From assembly GCF_003018255.1 (NCBI RefSeq), contig NZ_CP027440.1: DNA of 64,000 nt. The stretch is one strand, 5' to 3'. Below, in pieces: positions 1,915-54,461 of this stretch (position 1 is the first letter of the stretch; each line of letters starts with the position of its first letter). The position numbers and the translations under genes are program-made. Origin of the DNA: Escherichia coli. GTDB taxonomy: Bacteria > Pseudomonadota > Gammaproteobacteria > Enterobacterales > Enterobacteriaceae. The notes beneath the pieces are model-generated. The model had not been told where the DNA came from. It saw only the letters and a list, made by a program, of their open reading frames with translations, and ran no database searches.

Positions 1915-2805
1915 TTATTTCAGCGCGCCTGGTGAGAAGAAATCAACAATTGCGCCGGTTTTTTGCATATTAATATTAGCTTGTTCAATGTTGAGCTGGG
2001 CGACAGAGACAAAAAACGCGTCCAGCAAAGTTAGTTGTAATATTCTTGCCGAGGCATTACGACCTAATAACGGTGTTTCCGGGGCCGGTGAGCAAATAAT
2101 ATAATCGGCCAGCTTCGCTATCGGTGAATGGTAGCTATGCGTTATACAAATAATCTTTGCCCCGTTCTTTTTTGCCAGTTCTACAGCCGCTTTTACATCA
2201 CTGGTTCGCCCGGAATGGGTCACCACCAGCACCACATCTCCTTCCTGTAACAACGAAGCAGACATCATCATGATGTGAGCGTCCGGATAGGCCTGGCAGC
2301 GTACGCCAATGCGCAAAAACTTGTGCTGTACATCAGCACAGATTGCATTTGATCCTCCGGCACCGTACAAATCCCGCTGTCTGGCCTGATAGAAAAAGCG
2401 GGCGGCACGGTGGATCTCATCAACGTTGACGATCGACTGACCTTCCATAATGGTGCGTAAAGTGATGTTAAATACCTTATTCACCACATCCTGCGGCGCT
2501 TCATCAAAAGCCAACTCGGAAGGCAATACTTGTTCTGACTGAGAAAAATAATCTTCCAGCGCACTGCGTAAGTTACGAAAGCCGCTAAACCCCAGCAGCT
2601 TTGATACCTTAACGATCATCGCTTCAGATACCGCCAGAGCTTCTGCGACATCTTTAATTGCGGGTGCACAACTCAGGTTACCGGGTTTGAGTAACCACTC
2701 CACGATGCGGCTTTCGTTTTCTGTCATTCCTTCCTGCTTCATTCGCAGGTAAGGCGCTAACCCGATACCGTTCGGAAGCGCTGAATCAAACTCTGACTGG
2801 CTCAT
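1915..2805 (-). CDS. rpiR: RpiR/AlsR-family transcriptional repressor (HTH plus SIS domain)
   Basis: ORF track 1915..2838; start taken at MSQSEFDS (296 aa); between alsB and rpiB. Confidence 0.85.
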   Translation of the reverse strand: MSQSEFDSALPNGIGLAPYLRMKQEGMTENESRIVEWLLKPGNLSCAPAIKDVAEALAVSEAMIVKVSKLLGFSGFRNLRSALEDYFSQSEQVLPSELAFDEAPQDVVNKVFNITLRTIMEGQSIVNVDEIHRAARFFYQARQRDLYGAGGSNAICADVQHKFLRIGVRCQAYPDAHIMMMSASLLQEGDVVLVVTHSGRTSDVKAAVELAKKNGAKIICITHSYHSPIAKLADYIICSPAPETPLLGRNASARILQLTLLDAFFVSVAQLNIEQANINMQKTGAIVDFFSPGALK

Positions 2806-12929: not shown

Positions 12930-13018
12930 CTGTAGGCCGGATAAGGTGCTTGCACCGCATCCGGCATCAACGTCTGCACATTGTCGGATGCGACGCCGGG
13001 GCGTCTTATCCGACCTAC
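12930..13018. repeat. REP pair between phnE and phnD
   Basis: tgtaggccggataaggtg...cggatgcgacgccggggcgtcttatccgacctac palindromic units. Confidence 0.7.
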
Positions 13019-15427: not shown

Positions 15428-15492
15428 GATGGTGACCTCAGTTAAGAGAAGCCCGTTAAGTGTAGTTCGAAATTTATACAGATGAGAGGGAA

Positions 15493-15571
<79 letters not shown>

Positions 15572-21193: not shown

Positions 21194-21304
21194 GCTGAAA
21201 CGGATGGCCTGATGTGACGCTGTCTTATCAGGCCAATTGAACTCTTAAGGTTCACTTAATCTCTGACGCGCATACTCTCCTCCAGGTTAACGGAGGAGAG
21301 TGCA

Positions 21305-21394
21305 ATGAAAAACCGTGTTTATGAAAGTTTAACTACCGTGTTCAGCGTGCTGGTGGTCAGCAGCTTTCTTTATATCTGGTTTGCCACGTTCTGA
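21305..21394 (+). CDS. pmrR: 29-aa membrane peptide PmrR, convergent with and overlapping the basS 3' end
   Basis: atg at 21305 to tga at 21392-21394 encodes MKNRVYESLTTVFSVLVVSSFLYIWFATF; not in ORF track because shorter than 60 aa. Confidence 0.7.
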   Translation: MKNRVYESLTTVFSVLVVSSFLYIWFATF

Positions 21395-22470
21395 TCTTTC
21401 TTCAGCCGTACCCAGGCCCGCGTGCCGGAAGTCTCTTGCCGGTTTTGCAGGAAAAACTGCCCGTGATGCAACTGTGTAATGCGGCTGACAATACTTAACC
21501 CCAGACCAATCCCGCCATAACGGCTGTCCATACGTACAAACGCTTTACTCAACTCCCCGCATTTACTCTCATCAATACCCGGTCCTTCATCTTCAACGGC
21601 CATGACCGCTCCGCCATCTTCTTGCAGCTTAATCATAATGTTGCTGCCTTGCGGGCTGTAACGATGGGCGTTTTCTACCAGGTTTCGCAATAACATCCGC
21701 AGCAGGGTTGCATCACCCTGAACGGTGATGTCGGCGGCGCTCTCTGGCAATAGCAGGTTTTGCTGTCGCTGGTCGAGCATGGTACTGAGTTCGTCATACG
21801 AGGGGAGAATGACATCTTCCAGCAGTTTTACATGTTGATAATTACCGGAAGAAAATGACTGTCCGGCACGCGCCAGTTGCAGCAGCTGGGAGACACTCTC
21901 CATCATCTGATCAAGTCGAGCCACTAACGGTGCTACATCAATGTGATGCGTTTTCGCCAGCAGTTCCAGATGCAAACGCACCCCCGCCAGTGGCGTTCGC
22001 AGTTCGTGCGCGACGTCAGCGGTAAACAACCTTTCGTTATCCAGCGTGCTGGTCAGGCGACTGACCAGATCGTTCAACGCCGAAACCACCGCTTCGATTT
22101 CGAGGGTGGCGCTGTGAATGGCAATAGGCGTTAAGTTGTCGGCGGTGCGCGCTTCCAGCTCTTTTTGCAGCTCCGCCAGCGGCCGGGTGATGCGGCGTAC
22201 CGCCTGATAGCAGATAAATAGCGTCAGGCTGACCATAAAGACGCCGGGGACGATCAGGCTGGCGACCGCCTCGCGGATCTCACGCATGATGTGGCGATCG
22301 TTGTTGCGATTGTCGCGTAGCGCCTGCTCAAACAGCTGAATCTGCTCGGTACTTTCATGCCATAGCCAGAAGACGCTGATCAGCTCAAACACCAACAAAA
22401 TGGCCCCAATGGTCAATATCAGCCGTTGGCGCAGCGATATTGGTCGGCGCAGAAAACGCATCAGATTCAA
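21370..22470 (-). CDS. basS: sensor histidine kinase BasS/PmrB
   Basis: 366-aa ORF with H-box HELRTPL and ATPase domain; upstream of basR. Confidence 0.9.
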   Translation of the reverse strand: MNLMRFLRRPISLRQRLILTIGAILLVFELISVFWLWHESTEQIQLFEQALRDNRNNDRHIMREIREAVASLIVPGVFMVSLTLFICYQAVRRITRPLAELQKELEARTADNLTPIAIHSATLEIEAVVSALNDLVSRLTSTLDNERLFTADVAHELRTPLAGVRLHLELLAKTHHIDVAPLVARLDQMMESVSQLLQLARAGQSFSSGNYQHVKLLEDVILPSYDELSTMLDQRQQNLLLPESAADITVQGDATLLRMLLRNLVENAHRYSPQGSNIMIKLQEDGGAVMAVEDEGPGIDESKCGELSKAFVRMDSRYGGIGLGLSIVSRITQLHHGQFFLQNRQETSGTRAWVRLKKDQNVANQI

Positions 22471-31111: not shown

Positions 31112-32164
31112 ATGATGTCTGCACCCAAAATTACATTTATCGGCGCTGGTTCGACGATTTTCGTTAAAAATATTCTTGGTGATGTGTTCCATCGCGAGGC
31201 GCTGAAAACGGCGCATATTGCCCTGATGGACATTGATCCCACCCGCCTGGAAGAGTCGCATATTGTGGTGCGCAAGCTGATGGATTCAGCAGGGGCCAGC
31301 GGCAAAATCACCTGCCACACCCAACAGAAAGAAGCCTTACAGGATGCCGATTTTGTCGTGGTGGCATTTCAGATTGGCGGTTATGAACCTTGCACGGTGA
31401 CTGATTTCGAGGTCTGTAAGCGGCATGGTCTGGAACAAACCATTGCCGATACGTTGGGGCCGGGCGGTATTATGCGCGCGCTACGTACCATTCCGCATCT
31501 GTGGCAAATTTGCGAGGACATGACGGAAGTCTGCCCCGATGCCACCATGCTCAACTACGTTAACCCAATGGCGATGAATACCTGGGCGATGTATGCCCGC
31601 TATCCGCATATCAAACAGGTAGGGCTGTGCCATTCGGTGCAGGGAACGGCGGAAGAGCTGGCGCGTGACCTCAATATCGACCCGGCTACGCTGCGTTACC
31701 GTTGCGCAGGTATCAACCATATGGCGTTTTACCTGGAACTGGAGCGCAAAACCGCCGACGGCAGTTACGTGAATCTCTACCCGGAACTGCTGGCGGTTTA
31801 TGAAGCAGGGCAGGCACCGAAGCCGAATATTCATGGCAATACTCGCTGCCAGAATATTGTGCGCTACGAAATGTTCAAAAAGCTGGGCTACTTCGTCACG
31901 GAATCGTCAGAACATTTTGCTGAGTACACGCCGTGGTTTATTAAGCCAGGTCGTGAGGATTTGATTGAGCGTTATAAAGTACCGCTGGATGAGTACCCGA
32001 AACGCTGCGTCGAGCAGCTGGCGAACTGGCATAAAGAGCTGGAGGAGTATAAGAACGCCTCCCGGATTGATATTAAACCGTCACGGGAATATGCCAGCAC
32101 AATCATGAACGCTATCTGGACTGGCGAGCCGAGTGTGATTTACGGCAACGTCCGTAACGTATAG
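31112..32164 (+). pseudogene. melA: alpha-galactosidase, 5' fragment (about 349 codons) truncated by prophage insertion
   Basis: GH4 N-terminus MMSAPKITFIGAGS; the frame ends ...IYGNVRNV* exactly where prophage-end sequence begins; full-length MelA is recalled as about 451 aa. Confidence 0.8.
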
Positions 32165-32260
32165 CGCGGCGATTTTTTTGATACCGATTTGCATTTCATT
32201 TGATACCGCTGAAAAACGCCGATACGCAACTTATTTGATACTAAATCGGCGCTTTTCTTT
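32165..32260. repeat. prophage right-end terminal region with three direct TTTGATAC(C/T) repeats; candidate transposase-binding sites
   Basis: Repeats at 32177, 32199 and 32234 plus a GAAAAACGC motif, immediately inside the melA junction. Confidence 0.45.
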
Positions 32261-32287: not shown

Positions 32288-33025
32288 TCATTCACTCTCT
32301 TTCAAACCAGTTTTAACTGTTTGTGGTTTTGGGTAAGGCTGGACTTTGAATAGCTTTGTGTTGAGGCGTTTTCTGGCCCTCTTGTTCAGAAACCGGATGT
32401 AACGAAACTGTCGGAACTTATGCACACTGGCTCTGTCGATATTAGCCCTCAGATGTTCACCTCGTTGTCCGCCTCGTTTAATGGCACTCCTGCAAATCTC
32501 GTGATACCACTCGCCATCAAGTTCATAGAATGTTGATTCATGGCTGCCTACATAATCAAAATTGCTTGCCTGATACACGACACCAAGACAGCCACAACGC
32601 TCATCTGCAAACGACTGAACCCACTGTACCTGCGGATAAAGCTGCCTGATTAGCTTGAGCGCGTAACTGATTGCCCTTGATTCGGAGTTTCTCGGCATAC
32701 AGTCATGCATCCATAGCCGGTTAAGCTCCATATATTCTCGGTTCTGCGTACCCGTTACGACGCGTGCACCACTGTTTGGGTTAAGGGCGTAACCCCATTG
32801 CATTACGCCAACAAGTTCCCGTTCTGAAAATATACCCAGATGAAGGTAGGAATTATTTACGAAACGGTGGCTGTAATGTTTATTGACGATAACCAGTCTG
32901 GCCAGCCAGCAACTTATTGTCTCAACCCGCAACTCACGGGAGCCATAACCAACGATATTGTCGTTATAGCGAATAAGTTCAGGCGTGCTGATGATACGGG
33001 ATGTGACTTGCTTTCTGTTCCCCAC
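32288..33025 (-). CDS. mom: Mom-like DNA modification (adenine carbamoylmethylation) protein
   Basis: 245-aa ORF overlapping the 3' end of a com-like gene, last gene before the prophage end as in Mu; true start probably internal. Confidence 0.6.
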
Positions 33026-37076: not shown

Positions 37077-37102
37077 TCCCTGAAAACCTCGGTTTACGGG
37101 AA
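37077..37102. promoter_or_regulatory. gix-like recombination site, gin-proximal (crossover core TC at 37089-37090)
   Basis: tccctgaaaacc tc ggtttacgggaa matches the gix/hix consensus TTATCCAAAACC TC GGTTTACAGGAA (recalled). Confidence 0.65.
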
Positions 37103-37471
37103 ACGGTAAATAAGGCTGCTGATGCCCTGCCATCGGGTGGAACCGCCGTGGCAGCAAACAGACTCGCCACCCCAAGAAATATTAATGGCGTTCCTTTTGA
37201 CGGAACGCAGGATATCAACATCACGTCAGGAATGACGCAGTCAACCGCAGATGGCCGGTATGTACAGAATGTTCAGCTTGGAGCACAGAGCTATCATTCA
37301 CCCGGAGGCAATGAAATATCATGGAATTACAGCGCACCTTCCGGTTGTATGCTTTCCGGTATTAACGTGCAGGAAACCGGCTCCCGGTCTGCGGACAATA
37401 TCGGTGGGGTCTATTATCGCCCGGTTCAGATTTATATTAATAATGCCTGGAGAACGGTAAGTTCAGTGTAA
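37091..37471 (+). CDS. promoterless alternative tail-fibre C-terminal cassette (S'v-like) inside the invertible segment
   Basis: Open frame from the gix core: GLRETVNKAADALPSGGTAVAANRLATPRNINGVPFDGTQDINITSGMTQS... shares its first 50 codons with the expressed fibre then diverges; ORF track 37148..37471. Confidence 0.6.
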   Translation, partial: GLRETVNKAADALPSGGTAVAANRLATPRNINGVPFDGTQDINITSGMTQSTADGRYVQNVQLGAQSYHSPGGNEISWNYSAPSGCMLSGINVQETGSRSADNIGGVYYRPVQIYINNAWRTVSSV

Positions 37472-37505
37472 ACCACAGAAAAGGGTGCTGAATGCACCCT
37501 CTGAA

Positions 37506-38027
37506 TTATTCCGGTTTTTCCGGCCAGGGAATCGCCTGGTAATGCCCCTCACTGGCAATATCATTAAAGTGCATTTCTTTAAGCTGTCGGATATACGCCA
37601 TCCAGCGCGTCAGCTGTAATTTATTTTCATCGCTAATCATGTCCAGTTTTAATTCTGTTTTCCAGTCATCCACGGTTTCGTTGGCTTCCTGGAGCAGCGA
37701 TGAGCGACGCTTTTCAGCAACCGTCTTCCAGTTTACCGGCACCTTTGATATCAGGCCATCAGAAAACTGCCAGTTACCGTCAATATTCACACCTTCCGGC
37801 AGTTCGTCCACTTCAACAACAGTAAAACCTGCCGGATATAAAGCAGAGACATCTTCAGCAACAGAGCAGATAATACCCGTTACAGGCGAAATACAGAGTT
37901 TGTATTTCTTTGTGAAAAGCGGGATAGATTCATAAAAATCCCTTCCGTCCTCACTCTGGAAATACTGAACATCCTCACCATAGGGTTTGTGTTCCGGGTA
38001 ATATCGTTTTACGTTAATAAGCTCCAT
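37506..38027 (-). CDS. tail fibre assembly (chaperone) protein, U-like
   Basis: ORF track 37506..38138; start at MELINVKRYYPEH (AAGGTG RBS); downstream of the fibre gene. Confidence 0.7.
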   Translation of the reverse strand: MELINVKRYYPEHKPYGEDVQYFQSEDGRDFYESIPLFTKKYKLCISPVTGIICSVAEDVSALYPAGFTVVEVDELPEGVNIDGNWQFSDGLISKVPVNWKTVAEKRRSSLLQEANETVDDWKTELKLDMISDENKLQLTRWMAYIRQLKEMHFNDIASEGHYQAIPWPEKPE

Positions 38028-50286: not shown

Positions 50287-51234
50287 TTACAGATAATCCG
50301 CGACAACCAGCTCCAGCTTGCCCTTCATCTCGTTAGAGACGGTTGCGTTTCCGTCTGCGAACAGTTCACGCTCCAGCAGCTGCACCGCCTGTTTTTCCAG
50401 CGAGGTGGGGACAACAATATGGGTGGGTTTGATGCCGAGTTTGCGGCCACCGTCAGCGGTAAATTCGCGCATGGCTGACCAGCCGTGCCACAGTGCATCC
50501 AGCGTCAGCGGTGACTGCATCATGTAGGCCATCTGCCAGAAGCCGTAGCCCACATTGCGACGGGCGGATGCACCAAACACAAATTCGTTATCGGTGAATG
50601 CGCGACCTTCATCGACTTTGGTCTGGGCAACCAGTTCAGCCTTACGGCGATCCTGATAAATCAGCGGTTTGATTGCGCGTGAACAGTCGAGCAGATACCA
50701 GGCAGGACCGCTGTAATCCGCTTGTGCACCGACAGAGCCGGTTTTTGCCACAAACATATTGCTGACCATCTGCGCATCCCCGGAGCCATCCACTTTGGGG
50801 TAAACAGGATGTTCGGTATCAAAGAAGTTCTGGCCGTCATAGCAGGCCGCATTAATCCCGTCACGAAGAGCAGCAAAGACCAGTTCATCCGGTTGTGCCG
50901 CAGCAGCGCGCCCCATCTCCTGGAACAACGGGGAATAAATACCGAGGTTATCGTCTTCGAAGTCATCGCGGTTAATGGCGACGGTGCCTTCAAAGGTTTT
51001 GTTCACGATGGCATAGCCATAGGCCTTCATCTTCTCGATGACGCGGGAGCCGATCCACTCACGGAACTGCGGGAACTGCCCCAGCCAGCCGTAGGTGTTG
51101 GATTTCGACGTGGACGGTACGGTCATCGCAATTTTTTTGTACTGCGACGGGGCCATGGACATCCCGGCCTGAAAATCAGAACGGTAGCCCGTCATCAGGG
51201 CGGTGATCATCGCCGGTGTAATCGGGGTAGGCAT
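50287..51234 (-). CDS. major head subunit (Mu T-like)
   Basis: 315-aa ORF directly downstream of protease/scaffold gene. Confidence 0.75.
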   Translation of the reverse strand: MPTPITPAMITALMTGYRSDFQAGMSMAPSQYKKIAMTVPSTSKSNTYGWLGQFPQFREWIGSRVIEKMKAYGYAIVNKTFEGTVAINRDDFEDDNLGIYSPLFQEMGRAAAAQPDELVFAALRDGINAACYDGQNFFDTEHPVYPKVDGSGDAQMVSNMFVAKTGSVGAQADYSGPAWYLLDCSRAIKPLIYQDRRKAELVAQTKVDEGRAFTDNEFVFGASARRNVGYGFWQMAYMMQSPLTLDALWHGWSAMREFTADGGRKLGIKPTHIVVPTSLEKQAVQLLERELFADGNATVSNEMKGKLELVVADYL

Positions 51235-53129: not shown

Positions 53130-54461
53130 TTAATCAATATCTCCTTCCAGTACCTCAAGCATTCCGCCCCGGATATCCGATTTCAGCTTATCCATATTGA
53201 TAACCCGGTAAGCATTAACAATCACATCCAGTTTATCCGGCTGACGCTTCAGGCTGTACGGTGCATTAACGGCAATCTGCACACTGCCATCCTGATTTTC
53301 CACGATATACATCAGATTGTTGTGCCGTTTGTCCCACAGTACCGCTTTTGGCCTTGCCAGCATTGCCGGTAAGCGCCCGAAATCCTCCGGTGTCAGGGCG
53401 ATACCGTCATTCTGATGTTTCATGCTGTCCGCATGGAGCACATTTTTACCGCTCATCGCCAGCAGGCGGGCCGGTGGCGTTCCCGTCCGGCTTTCCACCG
53501 CCTGCGCAATGCTTTCGGTCATAAAGCCCAGCGTGCGGATATCGTTACCGCCTCGCCGGGTTTTCATGATGTTTTTTGCCCAGATGCGGAACGCCAGCTG
53601 CCGCTCCGGGCTGTTGTTCATCTCCTGAACCACCATTTCCCGTAACGCCGGGCTTTTCACCTCGATCAACTTGCGGAGCAGCGCCTGGTCTGTGCCGAAC
53701 GCCGCCGAACCGGGGTTATATGACCAGCCCACATCCGGTGTCATGGTTCTGGTGCCATCTGAATATGTGGTCACCGGCATTTCTCTGACTTCTCCGGTCT
53801 GCTTATCCACGCCAGCCTCAACATTGCGGGTGGAAAGATGATCCTGACCGGATGAAACGGATAACCCCATTGCATCCAGACGGGTCTGAGACAATGGCCG
53901 GACACGGCAGCGGCAGTTCCAGCCATTGGGTGGGTAGTGTGTATTCCAGAACGGATCGTCATAGCGGAATACCAGACCGTTAAGGGCGGAATGCGCCGGG
54001 CGGGTGCGGCTGTCCATCACCGCCACATACTGCCAGAACGGATGCGTGTCCGTGTTGTTCATCATCTGCGTGTAACGCCCGGCATTGTAAGCCACGCGGG
54101 TGTTCACGTTGTAAATCAGCGCCAGACGGCGGGGACAGCCCAGCTGCACTTCTTCTGCGTTACCGGCGCTGTCCACCACAATCTGCTTTCCCCACCATCC
54201 CAGCTTTTGCAGGCGGGGGGTCAGTGTGCGGATAAATGCTTTCTGTGAAATCCCCTCATCAATGGCCCGTTGCACTTCCGCCTGTAGTGTGGTCAGTACG
54301 TCCAGGCGTGCCACTTTTGCCGCCGTGAACGAACGGGCATGAACATCCGCGTCTGTTTCGAACCAGTTCCAGCTGATATGCGCCCCTTTGGCGCGGAAGT
54401 ATGCCACCGCCTCTTTTGAGGGAAGCGTGGCGGCATAACCTAAATCAATCCCCTGTGCCAT
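53130..54461 (-). CDS. head morphogenesis protein (Mu F-like)
   Basis: 443-aa ORF downstream of portal. Confidence 0.65.
   Translation of the reverse strand: MAQGIDLGYAATLPSKEAVAYFRAKGAHISWNWFETDADVHARSFTAAKVARLDVLTTLQAEVQRAIDEGISQKAFIRTLTPRLQKLGWWGKQIVVDSAGNAEEVQLGCPRRLALIYNVNTRVAYNAGRYTQMMNNTDTHPFWQYVAVMDSRTRPAHSALNGLVFRYDDPFWNTHYPPNGWNCRCRVRPLSQTRLDAMGLSVSSGQDHLSTRNVEAGVDKQTGEVREMPVTTYSDGTRTMTPDVGWSYNPGSAAFGTDQALLRKLIEVKSPALREMVVQEMNNSPERQLAFRIWAKNIMKTRRGGNDIRTLGFMTESIAQAVESRTGTPPARLLAMSGKNVLHADSMKHQNDGIALTPEDFGRLPAMLARPKAVLWDKRHNNLMYIVENQDGSVQIAVNAPYSLKRQPDKLDVIVNAYRVINMDKLKSDIRGGMLEVLEGDID

Follow-up and report, generated by a model that had tools for sequence, protein, structure and literature searches.

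Candidate transposase-binding repeats at the right end of an Sp18-like, Mu-like prophage in melA of Escherichia coli

The DNA analyzed here (the window) is a stretch of 64,000 nucleotides from Escherichia coli contig NZ_CP027440.1, in which the alpha-galactosidase gene melA is cut by a prophage (Table 1). Megablast comparison against 5399 E. coli genomes places the last melA-homologous position at 32159. Uninterrupted melA reads GTAACG followed by ATGGATTGAT past the junction point (ATGGATT directly after GTAACG); given this native continuation, the phage starts at 32160 with TATAGCGCGG. The interrupted open reading frame (ORF) extends into the phage end and, according to the ORF list, terminates with the stop codon at 32162-32164. 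This interruption (31112-32164) should deprive the strain of alpha-galactosidase and abolish melibiose use, while melB, which normally follows melA, would lose its connection to the mel promoter. On the prophage side, the DNA of the mom-like ORF is ~71% identical to Mu mom, and the identical sequence bears the label "Mom family" in RefSeq. The gap between the melA junction and the mom stop, given as 100 bp in the preliminary description, measures 128 bp. Within it, the block 32160-32260 is the stretch conserved with a relative in which the adjacent gene differs: the ends of Mu-like phages residing in Stx phages, next to an unrelated gene, match it at 93% identity.

Table 1. Coordinates of the features discussed in the text, numbered from the first nucleotide of the window.
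Feature	Position	Strand	Remarks
Rfam match, STnc630	21236-21401	+	host DNA
Rfam match, naRNA4	12935-13015	+	host DNA
Rfam match, naRNA4	15492-15569	-	host DNA
melA, 5' part (alpha-galactosidase)	31112-32159	+	cut by the prophage at nt 1048 of 1356 (codon 350)
AACG, predicted copy of the 4-bp target-site duplication	32156-32159		inferred from the family; partner expected beside the left end, off the window
attR, right-end block of the Sp18-like transposable prophage	32160-32260	+	terminus, three predicted transposase sites, inverted repeat
Terminal 17 bp, TATAGCGCGGCGATTTT	32160-32176	+	first base is the phage terminus, the cleavage/joining point; terminal dinucleotide 5'-TA
R1, core TTTGATACC	32171-32186 (core 32177-32185)	+	nt 18-26 from the terminus
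R2, core TTTGATACC	32193-32208 (core 32199-32207)	+	nt 40-48; 22 bp after R1
R3, core TTTGATACT	32228-32243 (core 32234-32242)	+	nt 75-83; same orientation as R1 and R2
13-nt inverted repeat	32211-32257		arms GAAAAACGCCGAT (32211-32223) and ATCGGCGCTTTTC (32245-32257); R3 lies in the 21-nt loop
mom-like DNA-modification gene	32288-33025	-	last gene ahead of the right end

The 31.8 kb from 32160 to 64000 are ~99% identical to, and collinear with, a complete 38.7-kb copy of the element on NZ_CP027368 (hereafter L005), except for an invertible tail-fiber segment that is flipped. The inverted stretch spans 37085-38027 of the window and corresponds to a tail-fiber (G-segment-like) invertible region in the opposite orientation. 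The gene order of L005 is Mu-like: a repressor-like gene, a Ner-like helix-turn-helix gene, the transposase, an AAA ATPase (MuB-like), Gam and Mor are followed by lysis, head and tail genes, the invertase, com and mom. The transposase gene lies ~1.2 kb from the left end and thus outside the window, which stops ~6.8 kb before the left end of the melA copy; left ends were consequently read from full-length family members. From these we predict that the left junction of the melA copy reads GGTTA(C/T)A followed directly by AACGATGGATTGAT. The L005 transposase is 99% identical to that of LC727881, a record from a study in which the Mu-like phages were described as Sp18-like (PMC10132054). The prophage in melA is, as judged by its sequence, an Sp18-like, Mu-like transposable phage of the same element family as Sp18 and the Sp18-like phages of Shiga-toxin-producing E. 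coli (STEC), an assignment based on comparison with L005 and LC727881. Sp18 of E. coli O157:H7 Sakai measures 38,759 bp (PMC7430833); it is predicted to be intact, and its DNA is packaged and not circularized (PMC2669165). The location of Sp18-like phages varies between strains and includes the interior of Stx phages (PMC10132054, PMC7430833). In the near-identical L005, RefSeq places a "tRNA-OTHER" inside the prophage (approximately 21282-21361, corresponding to 53131-53210 of the window), with a head-morphogenesis gene on one side and a virion-morphogenesis gene on the other. ARAGORN found no tRNA in the whole window. Rfam matches above the gathering score in the host part comprise the STnc630 sRNA and two REP-derived naRNA4 elements.

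The right-end block carries three copies of TTTGATAC(C/T), all on the plus strand and spaced 22 and 35 bp apart, precisely as the preliminary description had reported. A repeat search extended the repeat unit to 16 nt (GCGATTTTTTTGATAC, GCATTTCATTTGATAC and GCAACTTATTTGATAC for R1, R2 and R3, respectively). We considered whether such an arrangement could be a chance cluster in AT-rich DNA, or else the functionless relic of a dead end. The AT-rich sequence, the shortness of the core and the occurrence of isolated copies elsewhere would all accommodate chance. TTTGATACY occurs five times in the 64-kb window, however, against 0.63 expected (sd 0.86) from 100 dinucleotide-preserving shuffles, none of which reached five, and three of the five matches fall inside 66 bp. 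The two isolated copies of TTTGATACC, at 2600-2608 (+) in host DNA and at 50815-50823 (-) in the region of the prophage major-head-protein gene, are unclustered and within the number expected by chance.

The preliminary description interpreted the repeats as counterparts of the R1-R3 transposase sites of Mu and proposed to look for inverted copies of the same motif at the other prophage end. We therefore gathered 20 right and 16 left ends of the family, drawn from IMG/VR contigs, two records of Stx phages and complete genomes. All 20 right ends open with TATAGCGCGG behind unrelated flanks, whereas the left ends start with TGTAACCAGG in 12 copies and with TATAACCAGG in four. Reading inward from the left terminus of the full-length, ~99% identical copies, TTTGATACC occupies nt 18-26 and 113-121 and TTTGATACT occupies nt 165-173. 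In these family members the motif TTTGATAC(C/T) is hence present in the inverted orientation at nt 18, 113 and 165. R1 and L1 lie at equal distances (17 bp) from their respective termini. Left ends that have another immunity region differ in the surroundings of L2 and L3, yet their cores have not moved. Counted over L005, TTGATAC occurs three times at each end and only five times scattered inside the prophage; the locus total is 13 against 3.9 expected. The termini themselves are not uniform: the right terminal dinucleotide is TA in 20/20 E. coli copies, and the left one is TG (12 copies) or TA (four).

Variable flanks fix the termini and thereby also the length of the target-site duplication. 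At the six loci for which ends could be matched (L001/L003, L002/L004, L005, L008/L027, L014/L031 and L039), a 4-bp duplication was found in every pair: GATG, CTCT, TCCA, TTCT, TGTT and, in Limnobaculum, TTCA. When the flanks of LC727881 are joined with a single GATG, the resulting sequence matches at least eight uninterrupted Stx2c phages over 600/600 positions, a result that rules out TG...CA termini combined with a 5-bp duplication. In GenBank, the submitted records LC727881 and LC727895 likewise carry a 4-bp duplication in their annotation. Mu is reported to duplicate 5 bp and B3 6 bp (PMC8705779). In our literature search, whose coverage was incomplete, no paper tied Mu-like phages to a 4-bp duplication, so that this property of the Sp18-like family is possibly undescribed so far.

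The right end is present at 284 places, distributed over many loci, in 232 of 5426 complete E. coli genomes, with up to four copies per genome and occasional copies on plasmids. The end is thus in active use, as indicated by the many insertion sites, the several copies per genome and the clean 4-bp duplications, which argues against a dead end. Its features are those of the end of a Mu-type transposable phage, namely the position, the inverted motif, the three-site spacing and the target duplications at many loci.

Relatives of the transposase were sought with a peptide-pattern scan (one genome per species) and by tblastn of phage records. The Sp18-like transposase of E. coli is 79% identical to that of Yersinia phage vB_YpM_5, about 55-56% identical to those of Klebsiella phage Kp4866-3 and of Limnobaculum, Raoultella and Pluralibacter (the last three chromosomal), 47% to that of Pseudomonas phage VW-6B, 43% to that of Haemophilus phage SuMu and ~31% to those of D3112-like Pseudomonas phages. 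Three right ends were recovered among these relatives (vB_YpM_5, Kp4866-3 and Limnobaculum), each with cores at nt 18/40/74-75. The left ends of vB_YpM_5, Kp4866-3, Limnobaculum and Raoultella place their cores at nt 18/88-122/130-165, and in Pluralibacter a three-site left-end cluster with the same spacing lies at the start of the contig. The comparison with ends of other Mu-like phages, also suggested in the preliminary description, therefore shows four lineages (transposase identities of 55-79%) that keep the core positions; with E. coli included, five lineages have a core at nt 18. TTGATA is invariant in 37 unique sites, and the consensus reads AAnnnA-TTTGATAC-Y-R. Across the right ends of four lineages, 7/9, 7/9 and 8/9 positions are invariant in the cores of R1, R2 and R3, respectively, compared with 4/26 in the R2-R3 spacer, which contains GAAAAACGC. 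The recurrence of the cores at the same positions in five lineages, together with their excess over expectation, makes a chance cluster or a functionless relic barely credible. We conclude that the three TTTGATAC repeats are very probably transposase-binding sites at the right end of the prophage, and the proposal of R1-R3-type sites thus gains backing from comparison with the ends of the family.

More distant relatives show how the recognition sequence changes. The right end of VW-6B has retained the tip (TGTAGCGCGGCGAAAAA) and a layout of 18/40/73, with TTCTGGAC as its core, and the end repeats of SuMu combine a TTTTGCATA-type core with a 22-bp step. Since the cores of VW-6B and SuMu differ while the layout is kept, the core appears to vary with the transposase and the architecture to stay constant. 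Over residues 131-205, the VW-6B transposase is least similar to that of E. coli (28% identity), compared with 57% for Limnobaculum, which keeps the motif. Apart from the cores, the right tip T(G/A)TAGCGCGGCGA is kept from E. coli to VW-6B (47% transposase identity) and resembles TGAAGCGGCGCACGA of Mu, with AGCGCG (nt 4-9 of the tip) invariant across lineages; the cleavage site may thus involve a contact that is conserved in its own right. The right terminal dinucleotide is TA in vB_YpM_5 and Kp4866-3, as in E. coli, and TG in Limnobaculum and VW-6B. The earlier remark that the sequence is clearly not Mu's own end is correct for the sites, which differ from the 22-bp site of Mu, but goes too far for the tip.

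Two of the relatives have peculiarities of their own. Contig NZ_JADRCR010000009 of Limnobaculum allomyrinae (L039, 2620-9690) contains a 7.07-kb "mini-Mu-like" element flanked by the 4-bp duplication TTCA. It consists of a three-core left end, a repressor-like gene, a Ner-like gene, A, B, a few small ORFs and a right end with cores at nt 18/40/75, and represents a naturally occurring mini-element or else a prophage that has undergone an internal deletion. In vB_YpM_5 (L043), left-end nt 28-80, the L1-L2 spacer, are close to nt 28-75 of Mu (the pac-site region), although the transposase sites are of the TTTGATAC type, and the last ~26 residues of the A protein are identical to the MuA C-terminus. 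The Mu-like spacer and the MuA C-terminus imply that both the ends and the transposases are mosaics.

The preliminary description had also singled out GAAAAACGC as a motif of the right end. The sequence is indeed present, at 32211-32219, but it forms part of the left arm of the 13-nt inverted repeat, whose arms are 92% complementary, and is not a conserved end element. We thus rejected GAAAAACGC as a transposase site, as it belongs to an inverted-repeat arm that is not conserved among lineages; its 9-nt match to Mu R1 is probably a coincidence.

The inverted repeat raises the alternative that the region serves chiefly to terminate or regulate mom transcription through a hairpin, and that the repeats are by-products of this structure and not protein sites. 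Several properties would suit such a hairpin. The inverted repeat brackets R3, and the mom-sense RNA folds strongly (-21.6 kcal/mol, z = -5.9) ahead of a U-run. It is retained in an E. coli end variant without mom, next to a different gene, and Limnobaculum has a canonical hairpin with T-runs directly after R3. Yet R1 and R2 lie outside the hairpin, the left end, at which no gene terminates, has three cores as well, and the Yersinia and Klebsiella ends keep the cores without the inverted repeat, which was found in none of the other lineages compared (Yersinia, Klebsiella and Limnobaculum ends). A scan for consensus terminators made no call at the inverted repeat, whose 21-nt loop is beyond the limit of the scan. 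We regard it as very unlikely that a hairpin accounts for the region. Most likely the hairpin coexists with the transposase sites and does not explain the repeats, and the inverted repeat is possibly a mom terminator that shares space with attR. Because R3 lies in the loop of the inverted repeat, its conservation within E. coli may be due in part to some other role.

The protein expected to read these sites is the 696-residue A protein, which is 22% identical to MuA. Pfam matched the Mu DNA-binding domain (weakly) and Mu-transpos_C in this protein and did not detect the MuA DDE_2 and I-gamma families. At the sequence level, the catalytic core most resembles those of retroviral integrases (a weak match to the rve model). 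When the N-terminus was modeled, the best match was to the end-binding subdomains I-beta and I-gamma of MuA, and with moderate confidence the model suggests that the A protein carries a bipartite MuA-like end-binding domain of another sequence specificity. The distinct transposase specificity proposed earlier agrees with the non-Mu core and with the low identity between the two transposases.

In Mu, HU and IHF are used in transpososome assembly, and the pac site is near the left end. With this precedent, the repeats might instead bind a protein other than the transposase: a nucleoid protein of the IHF type, a packaging protein or the repressor of the phage. Read on the opposite strand, the core becomes GTATCAAA, which does contain ATCAA, the core of IHF sites, and the conserved upstream AA becomes TT on that strand, but the TT is 5 nt and not 4 nt from ATCAA, so that the WATCAANNNNTTR consensus is missed. 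Moreover, the core has been replaced wholesale as the transposase diverged (TTCTGGAC in VW-6B, TTTTGCATA in SuMu), in hosts that have IHF-type proteins in common, and the sites are fixed 17 bp from both termini in inverted orientation. Packaging is a poor fit in particular, given that the Mu pac site is at the left end only and these sites are at both ends. Binding of such a protein therefore seems highly improbable as the explanation of the repeats.

Taken together, it is highly likely from these sequence comparisons that 32160-32260 is the attR of an Sp18-like prophage, and that its inward-pointing TTTGATAC(C/T) cores are A-transposase sites, the counterparts of R1-R3. In the mechanism that we propose, each core would bind one A monomer through its N-terminal pair of helix-turn-helix domains, similar to I-beta/I-gamma of MuA. 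R1 and L1, each 17 bp from a terminus, would set the catalytic domains on the terminal T(A/G), and with R1 and R2 spaced by 22 bp, or two helical turns, adjacent monomers would share a face of the double helix, as they do in Mu. Once paired with the left end (nt 18, 113 and 165), the termini would be cut and joined to the target with a 4-bp stagger. We infer transposase binding to the cores, one monomer per site and the roles of the individual sites; our literature search found no binding or transposition experiment on these sites. The strongly conserved core is only ~10 bp, so that how far each site extends and how many monomers it holds are guesses.

Repeats of transposase sites at the end of a transposable phage are an expected feature, and the surprise is small. 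What is added is modest: for a common STEC prophage family, the end code is spelled out and the TA terminus and 4-bp stagger are documented. Sp18-like prophages occur in ~4% of complete E. coli genomes, mostly those of Shiga-toxin producers, and insert in genes, such as melA, and in Stx phages. We searched the literature on Sp18-like phages, with partial coverage, and found no description of end sequences or of a transposase-binding motif; the end motif of these phages thus appears to be undescribed so far. Exact termini, the duplication and the motif allow genome annotation to set the limits of such prophages at single-base resolution and to separate intact copies from those with damaged ends; mini-elements could also be designed that should not cross-react with Mu.

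Among known transposable phages, the Sp18-like A protein is nearer to the rve-type transposases of the B3, D3112 and SuMu type (43% identity to SuMu, ~31% to D3112-like phages) than to MuA (22%), and SuMu shares the 22-bp step between end repeats. The core motifs of this group differ from the Sp18-like one, however, and the duplication speaks against membership in the B3 type, as it is reported to be 6 bp in B3 (PMC8705779) and is 4 bp in the Sp18-like family. According to a 2021 paper, all Mu- and B3-like phages described before the TA-TA prophages of Leptospira have TG-CA ends (PMC8705779). The Leptospira elements are Mu-like transposable prophages that share the non-canonical TA terminal dinucleotides (PMC8705779), but they differ from the Sp18-like family in their 6-bp duplication, their B3/Tn552-type transposases and their unrelated host phylum, and no motif is common to both. 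It is possible, although we put it somewhat below an even chance, that the Sp18-like phages, together with their relatives from Yersinia, Klebsiella and Limnobaculum, form a distinct branch set apart from both Mu and B3 by its own AAnnnA-TTTGATAC-YR code, termini in ...TA-3' or ...CA-3' and a 4-bp stagger. If so, they would represent a naturally orthogonal Mu-like transposition system, uncharacterized though common in pathogenic E. coli.

The closest parallel in architecture is Mu itself. Both phages have three sites per end, the first of which ends ~26-27 bp from the terminus. R1 and R2 of Mu (6-27 and 28-49) are separated by the same 22-bp step as the Sp18-like R1 and R2, and the long L1-L2 spacer of Mu (L1 at 6-27, L2 at ~111 and L3 at ~151) is mirrored by the Sp18-like positions 18/113/165. 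In both, no further gene lies between mom and the right end, the tips are alike (TGAAGCGGCGCACGA in Mu, TATAGCGCGGCGA in the window prophage), and the modeled N-terminus of the Sp18-like transposase appears to fit I-beta/I-gamma of MuA. The differences concern recognition and chemistry at the ends. The core is TTTGATAC(Y) in place of the CGAAA(A)-type 22-mer of Mu, and a search of the Sp18-like ends for the 22-bp MuA consensus repeats (with CGAAA(A) in the 3' half) found none. R3 is direct in the window prophage and inverted in Mu, the right terminus is TA and not TG, the duplication is 4 bp and not 5, and the transposase, besides its low identity to MuA, lacks a Pfam DDE_2 match and shows the weak rve/retroviral-integrase match instead. 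In the site consensus, the TA right terminus and the 4-bp duplication, the family departs from phage Mu proper. The Sp18-like family thus offers a natural comparison with Mu, in which a shared site architecture is combined with differences in the core that is recognized, in the terminal dinucleotide and in the stagger at the target.
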